Below are positions 3,525 to 40,519 of a stretch of 40,519 nucleotides of DNA, piece by piece. The notes beneath the pieces were generated by a model that saw only the letters and a program-made list of their open reading frames with translations, did no database searches and had not been told where the DNA came from. Source of the DNA: a virus. Taxonomy: Duplodnaviria; Heunggongvirae; Uroviricota; Caudoviricetes. Each line of letters opens with the position of its first letter. Position 1 is the first letter of the stretch. Location of the stretch: the IMG/VR virus record IMGVR_UViG_2872185964_000011; one strand, given 5' to 3'. A program made the translations under genes and the position numbers.

Positions 3525-4322
3525 ATGCCCCTGGCGAAAATATTTACAAAGCAAGTTTCTTTATTAACTATGTTTTCAGCGTTAGCTTATGCGATGGCAT
3601 ATTCTTTTCAGAAAGGTGTTGCATCGTATTATGGCTATCCAGACCTTTTTATTAAAATAGACTTAAATACGCTATTGTATTCGGCTGTGTGGCTTTTGTT
3701 TTTTAGTTTTTTATTTCTCGGCGCCTTATATGCGGCGTTGATGTTTGATTTGAAAGGGAAATATTATGTTCCATTTATTGTATTTATAGTTGTTATGCTA
3801 ATGGCTAATATTTGTATAATAGGATTTCATTGGCCTTTTGGTTATTTCTCCGAAACTTCTGTGATGAGTGTTCAGGATATTTTATTATTTGCTATGCTTT
3901 TGTTGAATTATCACAATGTGGTGTCCATGCCAATCCATAGTAAGAGACACGAACATCATATGGAGAGCATTAGAAAATTTGGGAGGCTTGCAGAGTATAA
4001 GAACGTATTTTATTATATCGATTTAAAAATCCTAAAGTCAGCTTTTCCTTTAGGGGTGATAACGTTGTTGATATTGAGCTATACATTCGGGAAGGTTACT
4101 GCATTTAAAAATAACGAATATTATATGGTAGATGGTAGTAATACTAAAGTGTTGCTCAATTCATTTGGTAGTGGTTTTGTTGTTGGTGATTGTGAGTCAA
4201 ATAGCGCAAAATTTGAATTTGTTAATGATTTAAAAGGGATGAGATTCACAATCATGTCCTCTAAAAAGGAAATAGCTAAATTAAAAGAGTGTTTCGAAAT
4301 ACGTGTTAAAAATACGGATTAA
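3525..4322 (+). CDS. hypothetical multi-pass membrane protein; AT-rich accessory gene antisense to the replication operon
   Basis: 265-aa ORF with strong RBS; about four hydrophobic helices in the N-terminal half, soluble C-terminal ~90 aa; visibly AT-rich compared with flanks; no family recognised. Confidence 0.6.
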   Translation: MPLAKIFTKQVSLLTMFSALAYAMAYSFQKGVASYYGYPDLFIKIDLNTLLYSAVWLLFFSFLFLGALYAALMFDLKGKYYVPFIVFIVVMLMANICIIGFHWPFGYFSETSVMSVQDILLFAMLLLNYHNVVSMPIHSKRHEHHMESIRKFGRLAEYKNVFYYIDLKILKSAFPLGVITLLILSYTFGKVTAFKNNEYYMVDGSNTKVLLNSFGSGFVVGDCESNSAKFEFVNDLKGMRFTIMSSKKEIAKLKECFEIRVKNTD

Positions 4323-4974: not shown

Positions 4975-5736
4975 TTACGAGGAAGCGTTAGCTATTTGAG
5001 CTTGTGTAAATTCGAAACCAGAATTTTGTAACCGTTGCACTAGACGAGGAACTGTTTCACGTACATGGTCGTTGAAATTCAGATACAAAATCCCGTTAGC
5101 ATCAGAAGGCTGTTCTAGGTGCTGTTTCTGAAGGATTGCTACATTGCTGCGCCCTAAGGACGAAAGAAGCATACCCATCTCGAGTACAACGTTCTGTCTT
5201 GCGCGGGGTTGGATTTCTGCTTCACCGGCGCGCTTTGAGTATCCCATATCATCAGGTGTCAAAAGAACAATCCCGAAACGGGTAGCAGTTTGTCCTTGCC
5301 CAATTTCACGTTCAAGCTCTTCAATAATGGTGAGTCCAGTCCCTCCCGTATTCTGCAAAATGAAATGGTCTGGTAATCCAAGTTTATGAAGGATTAGCTC
5401 AAGTTGCTCCTTTGCAGTATGGTCATGGCCGTGAACAATGAATATCTTTTTGGGGAGCTCAGATGGCTGTTCTACGGCTAGTGGTGTTGCCGTGGGCGGC
5501 GTTCCTAAATGGGTCATTATTGCAGTTTCAACATTGGGACGTTCTTGAGGGTTACCTTGAAACTGAATGGTCCGGGTGGTGTAAAGGTTAACAATTACGC
5601 CATTCGTTAAACGATAGCAGTCACAAGTCTCACGCTGTTCGTGGGAAAAATTGGTGAACCCACACTCCCTCAAAAAGTCAGGAAAAGTTTCTCTCGGGTA
5701 TGGATAGGTGATCGGCATTTCAGTTAGTTCCTGCAT
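4975..5736 (-). CDS. TIR-like domain protein: C-terminal TIR-like (predicted nucleotide-binding, NADase-type) domain fused to an N-terminal ~95-aa domain of unknown function
   Basis: C-terminal half KKIFIVHGHDH...GIVLLTPDDMGY...RARQNVVLEMGMLLSSLGRSNVAILQK...PSDANGILYL matches from memory the bacterial TIR-like family consensus including the conserved Glu; own RBS and downstream terminator. Confidence 0.6.
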   Translation of the reverse strand: MQELTEMPITYPYPRETFPDFLRECGFTNFSHEQRETCDCYRLTNGVIVNLYTTRTIQFQGNPQERPNVETAIMTHLGTPPTATPLAVEQPSELPKKIFIVHGHDHTAKEQLELILHKLGLPDHFILQNTGGTGLTIIEELEREIGQGQTATRFGIVLLTPDDMGYSKRAGEAEIQPRARQNVVLEMGMLLSSLGRSNVAILQKQHLEQPSDANGILYLNFNDHVRETVPRLVQRLQNSGFEFTQAQIANASS

Positions 5737-5800
5737 AAGTATTGTTCCTTTAATTTACTCGAATTCAGCATGTCGCCATAGCTCGATAAGGTGAGTTATA

Positions 5801-7864
5801 TCAATCTTTTTTGTAGTGGTACGCCTCAAAACCGCCAGCGTTCAGTGGGATATCGGGCGCCCATTCGGGGTCAGTGGAGAGAAGCGCGGAAAGCGCTTTA
5901 TCGTTGAAATCTTCTGTGTCAGGTGCTTCGGTGATCACCTCGTCGTGTACCGTCAGCACAATGCTGTAACCGGCATCTTCGATAAGCGGCATGTTTCCGG
6001 CCAGAATGTCGCGGGCGGCCGCCTGGGTGATGTTCTCCACCAGCTTTCCGCCGTAGGTTTTGAGTCGTTGCCATTTACGCGAATAAGAGTTAACCCCCAT
6101 GTAGGTGATATTCCCTTTTTCGATAACCGGAGACGGGTAGCATACAGCGCGTCCGGATGGTAGCTGTATGCGCAGCCACGCGCCATCGCGGCGGATTTTA
6201 AGATAACCGCAATACAATGTTTTTTGCGGTGTGGCGATTGCAGTGCGGACGGTGCGCTCCAGTTCGTACCAGAAATCACAGGTCGCGGGATGCGCCCGGC
6301 GCCAGAGACGTTTAAGTGAGTCGCAGGCGATAAATACCCGTTCAGAAAGCCCGTAGGTTGACTTGCGTTTAACCGATTCGTCGTACCAGCTTTTCGCCTC
6401 GCGGATAACATCGCGGGGAATGTTTGGTAGTGCGGCGTTCGCCAGCTCGTCGAGATCGAGACCGTAAACCAGTGCAAAAGTGATGAAGGCCGACACACCA
6501 CCACCATAACCCAGACCGAGTTCCATGACTTTACCGATCTGACGCATGTGTTTATCAACATCATCTGGTGCAATATCGAAAGCTTTTGCATACGCCAGTT
6601 TATATAAGTCCGGACCCGTTCCGGCGTCGTACTCTCTGAATGCATTCAGTTTCCATTCTTCTCCCGCCAGCCATGCCAGCATACGGCCTTCAATGTTCGA
6701 CAAGTCACTTACCACCAGCTTTTTGCCTGTTGGCGCGATAATGCAGCCACGTAACGCTGAACTGGTTAGTTCCATGATATTGTCAAACAGCAGGTCTGCA
6801 CATCCGGCTTTCAGTGCTTCGATGCCTTCGTCTATTTGTTCCTGTTTTAGTGAAGGGCGGGGAAGGTTCTGGGGCTGGAATAGCCGTCCGGCCCAACGAC
6901 CGGTACGTGACGCCCCGCAGAACTGTAGCGTACCGCGTAAGCGCCCGTCGTGGCTTACGCCTTTCATCAGTGCCTTGTATTTACTGGTGCTGGTAGTACT
7001 GGCCTGCAGGCGGATAGCCAGCAGTTCTTTCACGGCAGATGGTAAATCGGGGTCGGCAATACGACGTTCCAGAGTACTGCGTTGCATGTCTGGTAGCTCC
7101 ACACCGTAGGATTCAACAATGTGCTTAATCAACGCGTCTCGTTGTGTGGCTGCCTGCACTTCGCCATCAGTCATTTCCTGTGTACGCTTTGCCAGGCGCT
7201 TTTGTTCCTGGTCTACCGCGTCGATCGCAGCGCGTGCGAGTTCCACGTCCATGCAGACGCCCCGGTCATTGATCTGCTGATCACGATGCCAGAGCGCCAG
7301 TTCTGTCCCCTGATAATTCCACTTCGGCAGACGTTTATAGACTTCGCGCATTGCCTCGATATCCAGTCCGGCGTAAGCAACAAAGCGCCGCCATTCTTCC
7401 GGGTGGGTTTTGCTGGTGGCCCGGCGCAGTTTGCTGTTTTTCGGGCGTGGCTTACAGAACAGCTGGATCAGCGCTTTACCTTCTTTGTCCTTCGCTTTGT
7501 CTTGCGGGACGCCTAGTACTTCGCAGAGTTCCCCCAGAGACCCCGGGAGACCGTGCGCCAGCGCCTGCACCATTGTGTCGCGCCAACGTTCGACTGGCGG
7601 TGCCAGGCGCGGCATTGCATAACGCAGAACGGTGCGGTCGAAGTGAGAGTTATGGAAATAAAGCTGGGTTTCAGGGTCTGCGATTGCTTCGTATAAGCCG
7701 TGTGGAATACCACCACCGGCAGTGATATCCCACACGTTTACTGGCCCGTCGTTGATAGCCCATGCGAAAAGCATCACTTCAACGCCTTCGGCATACGCAT
7801 GGGTACCGTTCGTAATAGGGATTTCGCAATAGGTTTCCAGGTCGCCCCATAGTATATTGGACAT
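5801..7864 (-). CDS. family A DNA polymerase with N-terminal 3'-5' exonuclease domain
   Basis: 687 aa; exo motif [11 protein letters not shown]; polymerase motif [16 protein letters not shown], motif [17 protein letters not shown], motif C VHDEVI. Confidence 0.85.
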
Positions 7865-20016: not shown

Positions 20017-21380
20017 TGGCACGAAACAAACAAGCCCTGCGGCGAACTGCGCAGGCCACAGCTGATGGTTATGAGAATTTTATCGCCCGCGTAGGGATGC
20101 AGACACCTAACCAGCACTCAGCATCCACCTACCGGGCTAATTTCACCAGTCGTAACCGCATGCTGGTGGAATGGTCCTATCGTTCATCCTGGATCATCGG
20201 CGAAGCAGTCGATGCTATCCCGGATGATATGACCCGCAAAGGCATTCGCATCACTTCGGAAATTGATGCAAAAGATCGTGGCATTCTCGAATCACAACTG
20301 GATGAGTTGCAAATCTGGGATGCGCTGAATGACGTGCTGAAATGGTCGCGCCTCTACGGCGGCGCGGTGGGTTTCATCATGATTGAGGGGCAGGCACCAA
20401 TGACCCCGCTGCGACCCGAAACCATTGGTAAGGGCAAGTTTAAGGGGATTCTCCCGCTCGACCGCTGGATGATTGACCCGGTACTGACCCGCCGCATTAA
20501 AGATATGGGGCCGGACCTGGGTAAACCTGAGTTTTACGATGTGGTGACCACAGCAACGGGAATTCCTGCCTGGCGCATTCATCACAGTCGCCTGATTCGC
20601 TTTGATGGCGTCACGCTGCCATTTCAGCAGAAGATGACCGAGAACGAATGGGGAATGTCGGTTGTAGAGCGTATCTGGGATCGTCTTACCGCGTTCGACA
20701 GCGCTACTGTCGGTGCGGCGCAGCTGGTCTACAAGGCGCATCTGCGTACCTACAGCGTGGAGAAGCTACGTGAGCTTATCGCACTTGGTGGTCCTGCGTA
20801 TGAAGCGTTGCTGAAGAATATCGACCTGATTCGACAGTTCCAGAGCAATGAAGGCATGACGCTCATGGACTCGCGGGATAAGTTTGAAACCCATCAGTAC
20901 AGCTTCAGTGGTCTGGATGACATCCTTTCACAGTTTGCAGAACAGATTAGTGGCGCTGTTGGTATCCCACTGGTGCGGTTGTTCGGACAGTCCCCGAAGG
21001 GATTTTCTACCGGCGATGCAGACCTTGCCAACTATTACGACCGGGTAAGCTCGTTGCAGGAGAGGCGTTTACGTCTTCCGGTGCGGCGGATACTGGACAT
21101 CATGCATCGTTCGGAACTTGGCAAGCCGCTCCCGGATGATTTCACGTTTGAGTTTAACCCGCTCTGGCAAATGTCTGATGTCGATCGTTCAACGGTGGCG
21201 TTAAATACCACCAACGCAATCAGTACAGCGCTGGGTGATGGTCTGATGACACTGAAAGCCGCTATGACTGATTTGCGCGAAAATTCTGACGTAACCGGCA
21301 TCGGGGCATCCATTACCGACGAGGACATCGAGAATGCCGAAGATGAAGCGCCGCCCGGCATCGGCGAACCTGATGACTAA
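20016..21380 (+). CDS. portal protein
   Basis: 454 aa after large terminase and before head-morphogenesis gene; acidic C-terminus; assigned by position and size. Confidence 0.65.
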   Translation: MARNKQALRRTAQATADGYENFIARVGMQTPNQHSASTYRANFTSRNRMLVEWSYRSSWIIGEAVDAIPDDMTRKGIRITSEIDAKDRGILESQLDELQIWDALNDVLKWSRLYGGAVGFIMIEGQAPMTPLRPETIGKGKFKGILPLDRWMIDPVLTRRIKDMGPDLGKPEFYDVVTTATGIPAWRIHHSRLIRFDGVTLPFQQKMTENEWGMSVVERIWDRLTAFDSATVGAAQLVYKAHLRTYSVEKLRELIALGGPAYEALLKNIDLIRQFQSNEGMTLMDSRDKFETHQYSFSGLDDILSQFAEQISGAVGIPLVRLFGQSPKGFSTGDADLANYYDRVSSLQERRLRLPVRRILDIMHRSELGKPLPDDFTFEFNPLWQMSDVDRSTVALNTTNAISTALGDGLMTLKAAMTDLRENSDVTGIGASITDEDIENAEDEAPPGIGEPDD

Positions 21381-22106
21381 CCGCAGGAACCGTCAGGCGG
21401 AAATCCGCTATCGAACCAGCCTACGCAGGATAGCGCGGGCGGTCGGAGACATCGTAAATGGTCGCTACGATGGTTCAAATGACAGTATCACGGAAATTAT
21501 TGAGGCGCTGGAACGCTACAGTGAAATCATCACCCCATGGGCGACAAAGGTCGCGGAAAACTTTACTGCGGACCTGACCCGGCAGAACGAGAAAGTTTGG
21601 CGGCAACACAGCAAGAACATCAGTCGCGAGCTCCGCAATCTTGTGGAAAGCGCTCCTGTGGGCCAGGTGATGCAATCCATCATCGCCGAACAGGTCAAGT
21701 ACATCAAATCGCTCCCCTCGAGGCGGCTGACAGGGTGTACGACATCCAGAATCGGGCGATAGAAGCTGTTGTGACCGGTGGGAGAGCAGAACATTTTGCT
21801 AAAGAAATTGCAGCATCGGGTGATATAGCAAAGTCCAGAGCTGACCTGATTGCCCGTACTGAACTTGGACGTGCAACCGGCGCGCTGGATCAGGCACGTG
21901 CGCTGTCAATTGGTTCGAATGGTTATATCTGGCGTACAGCCGAAGATGGTGACGTCAGGCATTCTCATCGGGAAATGGAAGGTAAATTTGTCGAATGGGG
22001 CAAACCTCCAACGCTTGACGGCATGACAGGTCACGCTGGCGAGTTCCCGAATTGTCGCTGTTATAAAGAAATCGTTTTTCCCACCTCCCATTCTTATCCC
22101 GCCTGA
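21373..22106 (+). CDS. head morphogenesis protein (Mu F / SPP1 gp7-like), frame broken at C-run 21714-21717
   Basis: C-terminal WRTAEDGDVRHSHREMEGKFVEW...HAGEFPNCRCY motif; adding one C joins ...KYIKSLP to LEAADRVYDIQNRAIE. Confidence 0.7.
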
Positions 22107-22120
22107 ATCGCAGGTAACAC

Positions 22121-23328
22121 ATGAAATATTTTTTCAATACCCGGCTGGGGAAACCCGCTATCAGCTGGCTGACGGCTCGTTGCTGTGCAAAGACGTGCCG
22201 ATAGGACGAACAGGTAAGCAGCTCTATGGTGCTGATGACCTGCCAAAACTGAAACCCGATAAGTTCGGTGAAATAGTCGTCACGCGTTCTCCTGAGCAGG
22301 TATTCCATCCGGCCACGCTTGCCTCATTCGAAGGGATGAGCATCACGATCCTGCATCCTGAAGATGAAAACGGGAATGTGCGGCTGGTAAATCCCGAGAA
22401 CTGGAAAGAGCTTGCTGTCGGGCACCTCCAGAATGTCCGGCGCGGGACGGGGGAGCAGTCTGATTTGATGCTGGCTGACCTTATCGTCAAAGACGAAAGC
22501 GCCATTCAGCTTATCGAAGATGGCCTGCGCGAAGTGTCGTGCGGCTATGACGCGGAGTATGAGCAGACCGAGCCAGGTAAAGCCGAGCAGGTCGATATTA
22601 CCGGAAACCATGTGGCTCTTGTCCCTAAAGGCAGAGCCGGAAATCGTTGTGCAATTGGAGACAGAGACACAATGGCAAATCAAAAGAAAAGCTGGTGGAC
22701 CCGCATGCGCACGGCCATCAAAACGGGTGACGCTGACACCATGAACGAACTGGTGGAGTCGGCTCCCGCATCGGTTACAGGAGATGAGGGGGATTTGCCG
22801 CAGGGCGTTAATCTCAACATCAACCTGTCCCCGCAACAACCGCTACCGGACAAAGCACCAGAGATGGGCGGAGGTCCAACCGGCGACAGTGATGATGACC
22901 TCAAAACATTACTGAAAGCCCTGCTGGCTAAGCTGGAAGGAAATGCGACGGGCGATAACGACAATAATCCGACCGGTGACGGCGAGGACGATGAAGAGGA
23001 AACCACGATTACTGGTGACTCAGCCTGGCGTGCCGAAGTTATCGTTCCGGGTATCGATCTGAGCCGTAAGATGAAACCGACCGCGTTCAAACGCGAGGTT
23101 CTGGCTTCTGCTGACAAAACGCTGGTTCGCCAGATAGTCGGTGATGCGGATATCCGCAAATTACCGAAACAATCGGTCGACATGGCGTTTAATGCCGTGT
23201 CTGAAATTGCCAAAGGGCGAAACACCCGCGCCACCACCGGCGATGCACAGCGTCCAAACATGGGCATGACCAGTATCGCTTCCCTGAACAAACAAAACGC
23301 TGAATTCTGGGCAAACCGTAAAGGGTAA
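22121..23328 (+). CDS. capsid scaffold/prohead-associated protein (DUF2213-like, from memory), frame broken near 22147-22153
   Basis: ATG at 22121 (MKYFFNTRLG...) then -1 frame continues LADGSLLCKDVPIGRTGKQLY...; acidic low-complexity middle. Confidence 0.5.
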
Positions 23329-35010: not shown

Positions 35011-36208
35011 TGGCTCTGAACCTTGATTCTCTCGGTTTATCTGCAAAGGTAACCGCGGAGGGGATCAGTGCGCCTGATTATCAGACGATACTCAGCACCC
35101 TGATTAGCTATTTTCAGCAGATTTATGGTAGTGATGCCTACCTCGAACCGGACAGCAAAGACGGTCAGATGGTGGCTCTGATGGCGCTGGCGATTCATGA
35201 TGCCAATAATACGGCGATAACTGTCTACAACTGTTTTTCACCGGCAACCGGCTATGGGGCTGCACTGACCAGTAACGTGAAAATAAATGGTATTTCACGT
35301 AAAGGCGCGACGAACTCTACGGTTGATTTGCTTCTTACAGGAACTGCCGGAACAACCATCATTAATGGCAGCGTGAAAGACAGTAATAATGTGATATGGC
35401 GTTTGCCTGCTTCAGTGGTGGTAGGCGTGGATGGTACAGTGATGGTGACCGCAACATGTTCCGTCAGTGGTGCAGTGGCGGCGCTGGCTGGAACTATCAC
35501 TGAAATTAATACGCCAACCCGTGGCTGGGTTTCGGTAACCAATCCTGCTGCAGCCACTGTGGGCACTCCGGCAGAAACTGATGCGGAGTTACGTATCCGC
35601 CAGTCGCAAAGTGTTGCGTTGCCATCAATAACCCCATTTGAAGCACTGGATGGTGCTGTTTCTAATGTTGCCGGTGTAACACGCCACAAACTCTATGAAA
35701 ATGATACTGGTTCGGAGGACGGTAACGGGTTACCGCCACACTCTGTTGCTGTGATTGTGGATGGCGGTGATGTGACGGATATTGCTCAGGCTATCAGAGG
35801 GAATAAAGGTCAGGGGACAGCCACTCACGGTACAACATCCGTTACGGTTCCGGATAAATACGGCAATCCCCATGTAATCAAGTTCTCGCGTTCCAGTGAT
35901 GTACCTGTTTATGCCCAGATCAAATTAAAAGTTTTTACGGGTTATACCTCACAGATAGGGCAGCAGATCCAGCAGGCTATTTCCGACTATATCAATAGTC
36001 TGACGATTGGTGATTCGATCCTTTTGAGTCGCATTTACTCACCGGCAAATCTTGGCGTGGTGAGTGGCGGGAATGCACGCTATTACGATATTCAGGAACT
36101 GACGATTGGGAAATCCCCGGGGCTTTGTCGCCATCAAACATTGATATCAGATATAACGAATCTGCGTCCTGTACCCCGGAAAATATCGTTATAACGGTGG
36201 AGTCATGA
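35010..36208 (+). CDS. baseplate J-like protein, frame broken near 36108-36122
   Basis: -1 frame gives natural C-terminus ...[28 protein letters not shown] with a TGA overlapping the next ATG. Confidence 0.6.
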
Positions 36209-36885
36209 GCAAATACACCGAACTAATCACGAACTACCACGCCACCAAACCTAAATTTCTTGCACATGTTGATCTGATGACCCGGCCGCTTATTGATGTT
36301 GCGGCTGCCACCAGCGGGCTGATTACTGCATTTGATATTGACTCTGCGGTTGGTGTGCAACTTGACATTCTGGGATTGTGGATCGGACGTAGCCGTGTTG
36401 TCAGCCAGCCTATTTCAGGTGTCTATTTCAGCTTGGATACCGACGGGCTTGGATATGATCAGGGGGTATGGCAGGGACCATACGATCCTGATTCCGGATA
36501 CATGTACCTCAGCGATGAAACTTATCGTGTCATTCTTAAAGCGAAGATTGCGATTAATAACTGGGATGGACGGAATGATTCGCTTCCGGCAATTCTTGAC
36601 GCTGCAACAGCAGGATCCGGGCTGCGAATGCAGATAGTCGATAACCAGGACATGACGATATCGGTCTGGGTCTTTCCTGATACTGATATTTCAGATGTAT
36701 CGCGTGAGTTAATTGCGGCAATTAAACAGGGGTATCTCACAGTTAAAGCCGCCGGGGTATGGGCGGGTGGCATTGAAACACCTTCGGTGGAAACTCCATC
36801 GGAAGGTTCAAAATTTTTTGGTTTTGATATGGATAACGAATTTATCAGTGGTTTTGATGTAGGGGCATGGGGAGTATTACTCTGA
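36205..36885 (+). CDS. baseplate/tail protein (gpI / Mu gp48-like candidate)
   Basis: 226-aa ORF; stop overlaps the tail fibre start. Confidence 0.5.
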
Positions 36886-37981
36886 TGGCAAAAAATGACT
36901 TTAAAACATTCGCAACGGGTAAAAATGCCAATGTTATGTCGCAGGAGGAATGGGAAGCGTTGCCTGCGCTTTTATCCGGATTTACAGCAGGGAAAGCATC
37001 CAGTGCGCAAGTCAATAAGGTTATTCGGCAGGCCAGCTTTATTGCATCTGCAATAGCACAATATACAGCAAATGAAAGTGGACTGGATGTACAGGACGAT
37101 GGCGATCAGGCCGGCTTTATCGCAAAAATGTCGTCTGCATTAGATAAGAACTATCAGAGAATTAATGCCATACTTACCGCACTTGCTAATCTTTCAGCAT
37201 CCGAAAACAAATTACCGTATTTTACCAATCAAGATACCGCTAATTTGGCTGACCTGACACAGGTTGGGCGAGATATTTTGGCAAAAAGCTCTGTTGCTGA
37301 TGTCCTTAAATATCTTGGTTTGGAAAATAATTCGACCTTTCCTGTAGGTGCCCCGATCCCGTGGCCATCAGATACAGTTCCATCTGGTTATGCTCTGATG
37401 CAGGGACAGACTTTTGACAAGTCTGCATACCCGAAACTTGCAGCCGCTTATCCGTCAGGCGTGATCCCTGATATGCGTGGCTGGACAATCAAAGGTAAGC
37501 CTGCAAGTGGACGTGATGTTCTTAGCCAGGAACAGGACGGCATTAAATCGCACACCCACAGCGCCAGTGCTTCAAATACAGATTTAGGGACAAAAAACAC
37601 ATCATCGTTTGATTATGGAACTAAATCTACGAATAACACTGGTGCGCATACCCATAGCGTTAGCGGAACAGCAGCTTCAGCAGGTGCACATACGCATCCG
37701 ATATCTCAGGGGATAATGCTAACGTTAGCTCCGGTAGAGTAGCTTCGTCGAACTCTGCTCAAACTCACTTAGGTGCAACGAATTCTGCTGGCGCGCATAC
37801 CCACTCAGTATCAGGTACTGCAGCAAGTGCTGGGGCGCATACACATACTGTCGGTATTGGTGCTCATACGCACTCCGTTGCGATTGGCTCACATGGACAC
37901 ACCATCACCGTTAACGCTGCTGGTAACGCGGAAAACACCGTCAAAAACATCGCATTTAACTATATTGTGAGGCTTGCATAA
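36885..37981 (+). CDS. tail fibre protein, frame broken at G-run 37709-37712
   Basis: repeated GAHTHS motifs; -1 frame continues through more of them to ...[11 protein letters not shown], a tail-fibre C-terminus I recognise. Confidence 0.75.
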
Positions 37982-38553
37982 TGGCATTCAGAATGAGTGA
38001 ACAATCACGAACCATCAAAATTTATAATCTGCTGGCCGGAACTAATGAATTTATTGGTGAGGGTGACGCATATATTCCACCTCATACAGGTCTGCCAGCA
38101 AACAGTACCGATATTGCACCGCCAGATATTCCTGCAGGCTTTGTGGCTGTTTTCAACAGTGATGAGGCATCGTGGCATCTCGTTGAAGACCATCGGGGTA
38201 AAACCGTCTATGACGTGGCTTCCGGCGACGCGTTATTTATTTCTGAACTTGGCCCATTACCGGAAAATGTCACCTGGTTGTCGCCGGATGGGGAGTTTCA
38301 GAAGTGGAACGGCACAGCTTGGGTGAAAGATGCAGAAGCAGAAAAACTCTTCCGGATCCGGGAGGCGGAAGAGAAAAAGACAAGATTAATCCAGGAAGCG
38401 ACTGATAACATAACAATTCTGCAGGATGCTGTTAATTTTGAAATGGCAACTGATGAGGAAATCTCGATGCTATCTTCCTGGAAAAAATACCGGGTATTAG
38501 TGAGTCGGATTGATATAAATACAGCCCCGGATATCGTATGGCCAGAGCTGTGA
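37981..38553 (+). CDS. tail fibre assembly protein
   Basis: 190 aa directly after the fibre gene; C-terminal ...[10 protein letters not shown] typical of this family. Confidence 0.7.
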
Positions 38554-38563
38554 TTAAACGGAA

Positions 38564-39109
38564 TTATGTGTGAGATGAGTTATAAATAATTTCAGAGTGA
38601 AATTTAGTAATGAATGTGGAGTCATCAGGAATGTCATGCAGTACCAATGCATGAGCTCCTATTTTTACATTATTCCCTATATGCACTTTGCCACCAAGGA
38701 TGGTGGCGTTACAGCCAATGGTTACATTATTTCCTATGACAATATCCATATCATTAAATTCACCGCGAAGTCCAATAGTTACCCCTGGCTTAATTGAACA
38801 ATTTTCACCTATTGTAACTTTGTGACCGATAACAACGCCATTGAGATAAGATATGTCGAACCCTTTACCAATATTTACAGTTAAGGGAACGGTTACATTG
38901 TATTTATCAAGAATGAAGCGTTCTATTTTTCCTGCAATCTTTCGCCGGTATCCTCCTTTATCAAAAAGATATTTTGCTACGCGCCACCAAAATAAATAAC
39001 GTAATCTTCTGTGTTTTATTGCGCGAACAATTGCTTTTCGCCAGGAGAAAGGGCGTTTATAACCTATTACTTCATAGTGTATACAGTTTTTAAGTTCACT
39101 AATATTCAT
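38564..39109 (-). CDS. hexapeptide-repeat acetyltransferase (serine-acetyltransferase-like left-handed beta-helix fold); cargo gene
   Basis: 181 aa with tandem hexapeptide repeats (VIGHKVTIGENCSIKPGVTIG...IGNNVTIGCNATILGGKVHIGNNVKIGAHALVL); AT-rich; antisense to tail genes. Confidence 0.7.
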   Translation of the reverse strand: MNISELKNCIHYEVIGYKRPFSWRKAIVRAIKHRRLRYLFWWRVAKYLFDKGGYRRKIAGKIERFILDKYNVTVPLTVNIGKGFDISYLNGVVIGHKVTIGENCSIKPGVTIGLRGEFNDMDIVIGNNVTIGCNATILGGKVHIGNNVKIGAHALVLHDIPDDSTFITKFHSEIIYNSSHT

Positions 39110-39190
39110 ATGTCTATTATTCAGTAAAGATAATTCTGTAACTTATTATTATATTAAGTTTAATGAGATTTTTCTACAGTTTACTGTCTT

Positions 39191-39322
39191 ACTCTCACGC
39201 CGGAGCAATGGGCGCAGGCTGGACGACAAATTGCATCAGGAGTTTCTCGCCAGAAAATGGCGATCATCTATGATGTTGGCGTATCGACTTTGTATAAGAA
39301 GTTTCCGGTCGGAGATGAATGA
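39191..39322 (+). pseudogene. 3'-terminal remnant of a Gin/Pin/Hin-family DNA invertase gene (HTH domain only)
   Basis: own translation TLTPEQWAQAGRQIASGVSRQKMAIIYDVGVSTLYKKFPVGDE resembles the Gin/Hin C-terminus; upstream is AT-rich with no catalytic domain. Confidence 0.6.
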
Positions 39323-39403
39323 AACCGTGGCACGTCGTATGCAAGAACGTGCCACGGCTGGCTGATAAGCTTGTAAAAATCTTGAACAGGGAGTGGAGCA
39401 TTT

Positions 39404-40051
39404 CTATGAAGCTAATTTGTTTAATTTCATTTGTAGCGACTTTACTTCTTGGTCGATAATGTTGAATCCCTTATTGACTGCATCTCTTAGTTCTGCATCA
39501 ATATTTTTTATCCCTTGAGCATAATCTACCATTACATCTATTTTTTCATCATGTAATCTCTTATACATGGTTTTATCTTTGTTATTGTCAGCCATACCAA
39601 TAAGTATTTTTTCATAATCCTCAATGAGTTTGTTGTTTCCTTTAAATGATTGTATTAATGACCGTGAATATGTGTAGATATTAATTATTGAGTCTCTGGC
39701 AGAATCATTTAGTTTTGCAATGACATTCGCATTTTGCTCATAGAATGTGAAATTATCATCCCCTACAGGGAAAGTGAGAATTAATATCTGTCCGGGTTTG
39801 ATATTATCAATGTGTGTTTTCATCCTTTTATTATATAAATTGATTAGGGTGAAAACTTCTCCCTTAACACCTTTTAATACTGAAAGTTGCAATTCAAGGG
39901 ATTCTCTTTCTGTCTCTACTTTAGACAGCTTAGCTTGTTGGGTAACTCCTTTTAGGGTAAACCATCCGCCAATAAGAGTACCAACTAGAGCTGTGAGGGA
40001 GGAGGATAACCATCCAGGAATGCTATTTAAAAAATTACTAAATTCACTCAT
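39404..40051 (-). CDS. hypothetical membrane-anchored protein; cargo gene at the right end
   Basis: 215 aa; N-terminal hydrophobic helix (LSSSLTALVGTLIGGWFTL), then helical and globular segments; AT-rich; no family recognised. Confidence 0.55.
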   Translation of the reverse strand: MSEFSNFLNSIPGWLSSSLTALVGTLIGGWFTLKGVTQQAKLSKVETERESLELQLSVLKGVKGEVFTLINLYNKRMKTHIDNIKPGQILILTFPVGDDNFTFYEQNANVIAKLNDSARDSIINIYTYSRSLIQSFKGNNKLIEDYEKILIGMADNNKDKTMYKRLHDEKIDVMVDYAQGIKNIDAELRDAVNKGFNIIDQEVKSLQMKLNKLAS

Positions 40052-40076
40052 TATAAGTACTCGCTAATATTGAACG

Positions 40077-40086
40077 ATATATATAT
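40077..40086. repeat. (AT)5 dinucleotide repeat 26-35 nt upstream of the 39404-40051 gene start
   Basis: atatatatat read directly. Confidence 0.7.
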
Positions 40087-40188
40087 CAAATTATTATAAA
40101 ACTCGTCAGCTACTGGAGAAGGCTACCTGAACTTCGATCTATTCCTGCATCCATATAGTTGATGGTCTTCTGGAGCTCTTCGATTAGG

Positions 40189-40519
40189 GGTGATGCTGCC
40201 AACTTACTGATTTAGTGTATGATGGTGTTTTTGAGGTGCTCCAGTGGCTTCTGTTTCTATCAGCTGTCCCTCCTGTTCAGCTACTGACGGGGTGGTGCGT
40301 AACGGCAAAAGCACTGCCGGACATCAGCGCTATCTCTGCTCTCACTGCCGTAAAACATGGCAACTGCAGTTCACTTACACCGCTTCTCAACCCGGTACGC
40401 ACCAGAAAATTATTGATATGGCCATGAATGGCGTTGGATGCCGGGCAACTGCACGCATTATGGGCGTTGGCCTCAACACGGTTTTACGTCACTTAAAAAA
40501 CTCAGGCCGCAGTCGGTAA
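40189..40519 (+). mobile_element. IS1 insertion sequence, left end and insA (partial; continues beyond window)
   Basis: starts GGTGATGCTGCCAACTTACTGATTTAGTGTATGATGGTG, the IS1 terminal inverted repeat as I recall it. Confidence 0.9.
40244..40519 (+). CDS. insA: IS1 InsA protein
   Basis: 91-aa product [43 protein letters not shown]... matches InsA. Confidence 0.9.

Follow-up and report, generated by a model that had tools for sequence, protein, structure and literature searches.

A remnant of a Pin-family invertase gene in an SEN34-like prophage of Escherichia coli, the probable scar of an overwritten tail-fibre switch

The right end of the prophage

The window analysed here, a single stretch of 40,519 nt, is Escherichia coli chromosome (99.9% identical to NZ_CP116169 over 1-40189) and carries a roughly 40-kb SEN34-like myovirus prophage located between yfhL and yfhH, whose functions include an integrase, a DNA polymerase, a VapE primase, a DUF3383 protein and baseplate J, among others. 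The nearest isolated phages are the induced E. coli phages vB_EcoM-689R2 and vB_EcoM-611R5 (97%) and Salmonella phage SEN34 (83%). The window departs from NZ_CP116169 at 40189 because of the insertion of an IS1 element, whose left end (the inverted repeat GGTGATGCTGCCAACTTACTGAT, then insA) is found at 40189-40519 within the 88-aa phrog_17793 gene; in relatives, this gene follows the 215-aa ORF described below and precedes yfhH. Two other genes of the prophage are worth recording. A TIR-domain protein gene at 6277-7038 of the NZ_CP116169 locus (about 4980-5740 of the window, minus strand), flanked by the genes for VRR-NUC and DNA polymerase, may be a defence or counter-defence gene carried by the phage. 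Moreover, a DUF1073 portal-like gene (21320-22786 of the same locus) is called a pseudogene by PGAP, with an internal stop at codon 455 of 489 that is also present in the window (21378-21380); this stop may mean a shorter C-terminus rather than inactivation.

The features on which this study is focused are listed in Table 1; known RNA families were also sought in 36000-40519, and none was found at gathering thresholds.

Table 1. Features at the right end of the prophage, with positions in the window.
Feature	Position	Strand	Evidence
Chimeric tail fibre gene	36867..37981	+	Homology boundaries; Collar, Phage_fiber, tail fibre PHROGs
Fibre N-terminus, common to switch-bearing sister prophages	36867..37045
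Fibre shaft, lineage-specific	37046..37340
Relic crossover (pix/gix-like) site inside the fibre gene	37303..37328	+	17/26 match to pixL of sister prophage L002
Fibre C-terminus, lambda Stf-like, receptor-binding	37341..37981
Tail fibre assembly (chaperone) gene tfa, single copy, lambda Tfa-like	37981..38553	+	Pfam Caudo_TAP, 130.8 bits
Hexapeptide-repeat acetyltransferase, 181 aa, AT-rich cargo gene	38564..39109	-	Pfam Hexapep, PHROG
AT-rich spacer in place of the catalytic domain; 5' flank of the acetyltransferase cassette	39110..39193	.	GC 0.30-0.36
Invertase stub, 3' end of a Pin-family serine invertase gene	39194..39322	+	BLASTP, Pfam, tblastn, blastn
Conserved hairpin just past the invertase stop codon	39325..39364	.	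MFE -25.6 kcal/mol, z -4.8
215-aa ORF, AT-rich, membrane-anchor-like N-terminus	39404..40051	-	ORF; GC 28-36%

In the fibre gene, homology to the tips of Stf-type fibres starts at 37338-37356, about 10 nt to the right of the relic crossover site, a boundary seen in about 3,500 E. coli genomes as well as in comparators of the lambdoid, P1-like and P2/Mu-like types, and this point is the usual constant/variable junction of Stf-type fibres. The nucleotide identity to lambda is about 83% for tfa, and likewise for stf/tfa. As it stands in the window, the fibre gene is broken at 37709 by the deletion of one nucleotide in a G run (G4 where relatives have G5), and in NZ_CP116169 it is an intact ORF of 371 aa. 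In comparison with this nearly identical genome, the window shows 17 single-base deletions, every one in a G or C run (positions 560, 2834, 4669, 10236, 13571, 17785, 18170, 21714, 22147, 24804, 25978, 29626, 31832, 32698, 34499, 36119 and 37709), which is the signature of homopolymer assembly errors. These errors give false frameshifts in the fibre gene, in baseplate J and in other genes. A dead or phase-variable fixed fibre, as the frameshift might indicate, was rejected, the change at 37709 being one of the 17 homopolymer deletions and the ORF being intact in NZ_CP116169. An earlier note on this DNA, made from the letters alone, had proposed that a single fibre variant has been fixed, and this agrees with the one Stf-like tip, the one tfa and the intact ORF of the near-identical genome.

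The cargo gene differs in composition from its neighbours, with a GC content of 0.36 compared with 0.46-0.50 in the fibre and tfa genes, and encodes a left-handed beta-helix enzyme, CysE/EpsC/WcaB-like and without the N-terminal domain of CysE. It scores 50.6 bits against Pfam Hexapep and matches phrog_2154 over its full length (E 8e-78); the NCBIfam scores all remain below the equivalog cut-offs (EpsC 85 vs 150, CysE 78 vs 211, WcaB 59 vs 195), and the serine acetyltransferases of the PDB align to it over the beta-helix part only. The cassette is polymorphic in presence and absence, being missing in the switch-bearing sisters and present in lambdoid, P1-like and other phages. By its distinct composition and this polymorphism, the AT-rich cargo would fit a moron or lysogenic-conversion cassette, and the enzyme might tentatively be regarded as a putative lysogenic-conversion product that O-acetylates a surface polysaccharide. 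In the adjoining spacer, a consensus scan, the only evidence used for this type of signal, picked out a minus-strand site resembling a promoter (-35 from 39176, -10 to 39148; 10/12 match), and no terminator-like site downstream of the acetyltransferase gene on its own strand. Homology to the acetyltransferase cassettes of phage vB_EcoM-613R2 and of a P1-like plasmid stops within the spacer, at about 39177-39183.

On the other side of the stub, the GC-rich hairpin (40 nt) is the right edge of a block common to lambdoid prophages, and homology to the lambdoid prophage of ETEC H10407 stops at 39364. The hairpin is found without the stub in Stx phages, HK97, HK106, phiP27 and Rac (90-98% identity, near the fibre or the right end), phage matches reach the hairpin stretch only, and it has no entry in Rfam. 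The hairpin may serve to terminate transcription of the convergent gene, or it may be a conserved sequence at a module boundary. The 215-aa ORF that comes next, whose N-terminus is hydrophobic, is the constant right-hand neighbour of pin in the SEN34-like prophage family, with pin intact or truncated. It belongs to no family of Pfam, NCBIfam or PHROG, and PADLOC gave one weak, non-significant match (E 0.003); its assignment to a defence system or to a known family was dropped, nothing significant having been found, and it is a possible moron or exclusion gene.

The invertase stub and the lost switch

The coding content of the stub consists of the last 42 codons of the gene, which include the helix-turn-helix (HTH) domain, and of the stop codon (TGA at 39320-39322); the translation of this frame ends in LTLTPEQWAQAGRQIASGVSRQKMAIIYDVGVSTLYKKFPVGDE, also written DFSTVYCLTLTPEQWAQAGRQIASGVSRQKMAIIYDVGVSTLYKKFPVGDE. 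The residues LTPEQW...GDE correspond to aa 143-184 of the 184-aa PinE of a syntenic prophage, with 36 of 42 residues identical (86%; BLASTP E 9e-27), and the peptide scores 35.8 bits against Pfam HTH_7 (PF02796; cut-off 23.8), indicating that the C-terminal DNA-binding domain is present. The proposal of the earlier note that only about 43 C-terminal codons of a Gin/Pin/Hin-type invertase survive is confirmed. By contrast, the start that it had placed at 39167 has to be corrected: by blastn, homology to pinE begins at 39194 (nt 427 of the gene), or possibly at 39188, and about 27 nt of unrelated AT-rich DNA had been included. That AT-rich DNA abuts the stub in place of the catalytic domain, as had also been noticed, is evident from the GC content, which is 0.30-0.36 just upstream and 0.50 within the stub.

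When full-length PinE was compared by tblastn with the whole 40.5-kb window, the sole significant match was again aa 143-184, at 39194-39319 (E 1e-20); no other PinE segment was found in any frame of the whole window, the remaining matches all having E ≥ 0.2, and therefore no catalytic domain is hidden in another frame. In the same way, the resolvase catalytic domain (PF00239) with its active-site serine, sought in the window by tblastn and Pfam, is absent, and Pfam gives HTH_7 only; for comparison, the intact PinE of the sister prophage L002 scores 175.5 bits for Resolvase in addition to HTH_7. Three in-frame stop codons are located directly upstream of the stub, and no ATG, GTG or TTG in its frame would give 30 aa or more, the sole in-frame ATG leaving 22 aa. 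The first 426 nt of the invertase gene are missing from the window. In the Din family, the recombinational enhancers are located in the 5' part of the invertase gene (Gin/Hin/Cin); any enhancer situated there must therefore have gone together with these 426 nt, the enhancer being placed by position.

In the 99.9% identical genome, PGAP/RefSeq labels this stretch as 'helix-turn-helix domain-containing protein, incomplete, missing N-terminus', and for some copies adds the remark 'internal stop'. In particular, a TGG>TAG premature stop occurs in the stub copies of L006 and of six IMG/VR loci (L021, L040, L041, L043, L051 and L064), and a CAG>TAG premature stop in those of L003 and L053; these TAG codons are signs of neutral decay. 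The homology to part of the gene only, and the intact orthologue that close relatives have at the syntenic position, define the stub as a pin pseudogene. Without a start codon, the catalytic domain, the enhancer region and pixR (the crossover site adjacent to intact pin), it has no enzymatic function.

The working form of the locus can be seen in L002 (NZ_CP018970), which occupies the same host-gene interval with an intact switch. Here, the order of the genes is fibre gene, forward tfa, reverse tfa, reverse fibre C-terminal fragment and intact pinE, the classic Din-family arrangement, and an 18-nt inverted repeat (AAACCTTGGTTTGGGAGA) has one copy within the fibre gene (3662-3679 of this locus) and the other 62 nt before the ATG of pinE (5496-5513). 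In sister prophages, the 26-bp crossover site is located 55-80 nt upstream of pinE, with its inverted partner within the fibre gene; the site at -80 to -55 is present in all of the 28 readable intact-pin IMG/VR loci (26 with TTCTCCCAAACCAACGTTTATGAAAA and two with one substitution), a count that leaves out three further intact-pin loci (two with single substitutions and one with an N run). Alignment to these intact fibre-invertase loci, which had been proposed as a check, maps the replaced interval: the match to L002 breaks off at 37045, after the first 179 nt of the fibre gene, and resumes at 39194, and the 2.1 kb in between hold a different fibre shaft, the Stf-like tip, one tfa and the minus-strand AT-rich acetyltransferase gene. 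The suggestion that the phage once had an invertible host-range segment is well supported by the sister prophages at the same site, which keep pinE, the two sites and the opposed arms.

The search for a gix/hix-like site in the fibre gene, the other check proposed at the outset, was positive and returned one degenerate site, with sequence TCCTTAAATATC TT GGTTTGGAAAAT. The agreement shown in Table 1 is with pixL of L002 (CTCTCGAAAACC TT GGTTTGGGAGAG), which lies at the homologous fibre position; a core of 10 nt, CTTGGTTTGG, is identical in the two sites, occurs only once in the window and has its counterpart at the corresponding place in the fibre genes of L002 and L042. In the left half-site, the conserved AAACC has degenerated to ATATC. 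This similarity could partly reflect protein constraint, since the site also encodes a conserved LGL peptide motif. No partner crossover site was found in 36800-39400, nor was AAACCNNGGTTT found in the region at ≤ 1 mismatch. A working switch requires two inverted 26-bp sites; intact relatives have both, and the window has a single degenerate one.

Origin of the truncation

The most probable explanation of these observations, to which we assign a probability of about 0.85, is that 39194-39322 is a dead Pin-family stub marking an invertible tail-fibre switch that was overwritten, with one Stf-like tip being fixed. The ancestral layout would have comprised the constant part of the fibre gene, pixL, an invertible segment in which fibre tip A and tfa A faced tfa B and fibre tip B, then pixR and pin. 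In the window, the AT-rich acetyltransferase cassette, in opposite orientation, takes the place of the right arm, of pixR and of the first 426 nt of pin. A single lambda Stf-like tip with a single tfa is left and, these being the only ones, the host range would be fixed in one state.

Where this occurred can be approached from the distribution of the block 37341-39364, which comprises the fibre tip, tfa, the acetyltransferase, the stub and the hairpin (up to 42 nt past the stop codon). This block is 97% identical to part of the lambdoid prophage located beside prfC in ETEC H10407, in which the order is gpJ, lom, stf, tfa, acetyltransferase, HTH pseudogene and dinI-like, and the sequence of the acetyltransferase/stub junction is identical. 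At ≥ 95% identity, 64 E. coli chromosomes have the acetyltransferase with the window-type junction (40 of 40 among the matches listed carry both annotations), and only 11 genomes have the full context of the window; the block is also present in an SEN34-like prophage at another chromosomal site, next to pphA. The stub has the allele RQIASGVS...KKFPVGDE, which is the same in the lambdoid copy and in the intact pin of the P2-like phage L047, and in the SEN34-like family every intact pin sampled has RLIASGVP. The identity of the stub is 89-91% with the intact pins of the family and 95% with the lambdoid copy, compared with about 96-97% between L002 and the DNA that follows the stub on the right. 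Four synonymous changes in the first 12 nt are common to all window-type stubs. The acetyltransferase was never found beside an intact or longer pin among the 40 E. coli matches listed, the phage matches and the plasmid matches. The stub is present in the eight fetched loci with the window-type shaft (8/8), and no genome of the sample combines this shaft with an intact switch. P1-like phage-plasmids have the same Stf tip, tfa and acetyltransferase without any invertase remnant.

Because the lambdoid prophage shares the junction at 97%, and the stub allele was not seen in the intact pins of the family, an import is favoured, and the block was probably assembled elsewhere and entered the SEN34-like prophage by homologous recombination. 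The left crossover would have occurred in the fibre gene and the right one in the conserved 3' end of pin or in the hairpin. As regards the direction of transfer, the truncation could also have arisen in an SEN34-like prophage, followed by export to lambdoid phages. According to the earlier note, the switch was deleted or replaced when the AT-rich cargo arrived: the replacement of the switch region stands, but the truncation itself most likely took place in another phage, in view of the same junction in the lambdoid prophage and of the foreign pin allele.

Alternatively, the switch could have been lost in place: the ancestor of this lineage would have had a full switch with the Stf-like tip, insertion of the cassette would have removed the other arm together with pixR and the first three quarters of pin, and the result would later have been exported to lambdoid phages. 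We regard this course of events as rather unlikely. In its favour, the relic pixL immediately precedes the Stf-like tip on its left, which is where it should be if this tip had once formed an arm of an invertible segment; the same locus holds the switch in sister prophages, and the loss of pin is frequent in the family: 80 complete E. coli genomes have the pin 3' end with the family-specific 215-aa neighbour, 46 with intact pinE and pixR, and roughly 34 of the 80 would thus have lost the intact gene. On the other hand, the stub allele is unlike those of all the intact pins seen in the family and matches the lambdoid copy and the intact P2-like pin, and the window-type junction is more common in other settings (about 64 chromosomes) than in the present prophage context (11).

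The pin gene has been truncated independently in different phages, in five classes starting at aa 122-149 (122-, 130-, 143-, about 144- and 149-184). In the same family as the window, L003 and L053 break within about 3 nt of the window breakpoint, next to a second hexapeptide acetyltransferase (36% identical), and the SEN34-like prophage L042 keeps PinE aa 149-184, with a 116-aa PagK-like secreted protein and a DUF1353 gene against the truncated pin. Among P2-like phages, L022 and L050 keep aa 130-184, the cargo being a 341-aa gene (GC 0.31) for an Acyl_transf_3 (Oac-like) membrane acyltransferase, and in the L049 group, with aa 122-184, the fibre gene directly abuts the stub. In phage vB_EcoM-611R5, at 3944-4258, an annotated 'DNA invertase' in an invertible-segment layout abuts a different 281-aa minus-strand gene; it looks truncated from the opposite (3') end, since only 104 aa are kept. 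The IMG/VR search pattern, pin nt 462-488, forces the recovered remnants to include the HTH, and E. coli genomes also hold shorter remnants (from about nt 492) and hairpin-only versions; non-random clustering of breakpoints at the catalytic/HTH boundary is not claimed, since it would be, at least partly, ascertainment by this pattern.

Although their cargo flanks look unrelated, the junctions of the window type and of the L003 type nearly coincide, and one possible reading is that the junction is old and the interior has been kept similar to live pin genes by recombination. This coincidence, in which two types of cargo break within about 3 nt, together with an 8-nt match to a pix half-site, also speaks for an aberrant Pin-catalysed recombination at a quasi-crossover site (TCCCAAAC TT ACACC, pin nt 420-434) lying exactly at the breakpoint. 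Such a mechanism is nevertheless improbable, and by a wide measure: the half-site scores 8/12, tied with nine other positions of the gene, and 1999 of 2000 shuffled genes reach the same score; neither junction shows a pix half-site on its cargo side, and the other truncations break at nt ~364-404 and ~443-492. The quasi-pix site is thus not supported as evidence of Pin-catalysed deletion, being chance-like by mismatch scoring.

Even more improbable is that the stub is a small HTH gene or regulatory element under selection, for example one encoding a peptide that binds DNA and keeps other invertases of the Pin family from acting at pix sites. In its favour, just the HTH end has been kept in several truncations that arose independently in different phages, but the stub frame has no start giving at least 30 aa, copies with premature stops exist, E. 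coli genomes also have shorter remnants and hairpin-only versions, and the recurrence of this end is partly produced by the search pattern. Finally, an intact invertase hidden by assembly frameshifts, which the 17 G/C homopolymer deletions of the window might have suggested, has a negligible probability and is refuted by the tblastn search and by the same junction in the independently sequenced NZ_CP116169, with no difference within 38038-40189, and in dozens of other genomes.

Going back to the overwritten switch, it is tempting to view the stub plus hairpin as a portable right homology arm, and the Stf-type junction by the old crossover site as the left arm, of a block that joins a tip, its chaperone and a surface acetyltransferase and repeatedly overwrites switches in SEN34-like, lambdoid, P2-like and P1-like backbones, coupling one receptor specificity to an enzyme that modifies the receptor or the polysaccharide; this generalization is tentative, and we hold it rather doubtful. 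On this view, the independent truncations with different acyltransferase or virulence cargo would suggest that lysogenic-conversion genes land preferentially in the arm of the switch next to pin.

Comparison with known systems

The scar does not change the current understanding of invertases and phage mosaicism. It accounts for the single fibre tip in a prophage whose relatives flip between two, it offers a clean natural example of the loss of a phage host-range switch and of a fibre-tip/acetyltransferase block moving between unrelated phages via short conserved arms, and it is a warning for annotation, in that a pseudogene labelled 'HTH domain-containing protein' is an invertase scar. The main biological question of weight concerns the target of the recurrent acetyltransferase cargo and its link to the accompanying fibre tip.

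Acetyltransferase genes in comparable positions are found in other phages. NeuO of CUS-3 is a phage lysogenic-conversion acetyltransferase. Oac of Sf6 is another, of the Acyl_transf_3 type (PMC3630932), and these morons are, likewise, AT-rich, independently transcribed-looking genes of the acetyltransferase class located by the tail fibre genes at the prophage end; in the P2-like phage L022, an Acyl_transf_3 gene lies in the equivalent slot beside the truncated pin. Unlike these enzymes, the 181-aa hexapeptide protein reaches no curated equivalog threshold. A further parallel is the P1-like phage-plasmid JL22, in which the cin/C-segment region is replaced by tfa and a serine acetyltransferase gene, the role of the latter being called unknown (PMC9603915); a literature search for this exact scar returned only this note. 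In P1-like replacements of this type, the same acetyltransferase family is found at the switch position, with 82-89% nucleotide identity across Stf tip, tfa and acetyltransferase. In contrast to the window, the P1-like plasmid L008 (NZ_CP122941) has no invertase remnant but a group II intron fragment next to the acetyltransferase. This fragment (domains D1-D4, 6094-6363, minus strand; Rfam RF02001 104 bits and RF01998 47 bits) is located between the acetyltransferase and holin genes, where P1 would carry cin, in a 1-kb gap without annotated gene.

Among invertases, the stub is closest to the Din family, which includes Pin of the P segment of the E. coli element e14 (pinE), Gin of Mu, Cin of P1 and Hin of Salmonella: it shares HTH_7 and the 86% identity given above with a protein named pinE in RefSeq, and the sister prophages have the canonical layout of this family, in which one site lies within the fibre gene and the other just 5' of the invertase, and the fibre-tip/tfa arms are opposed. 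In comparison with working systems, the window has no catalytic domain, start codon, pixR, second arm or 5' gene region, and is left with one degenerate site. E. coli K-12 has an invertase pseudogene of its own, pinH, a pin-type fragment in a cryptic prophage without an associated invertible segment. The stub described here is, in this respect, an ordinary and recurrent kind of phage genome scar and a new instance of a Din-family invertase pseudogene; it differs from pinH in its locus and prophage, in that the lost switch can be reconstructed from sister prophages, and in that the scar travels with a defined block of cargo.
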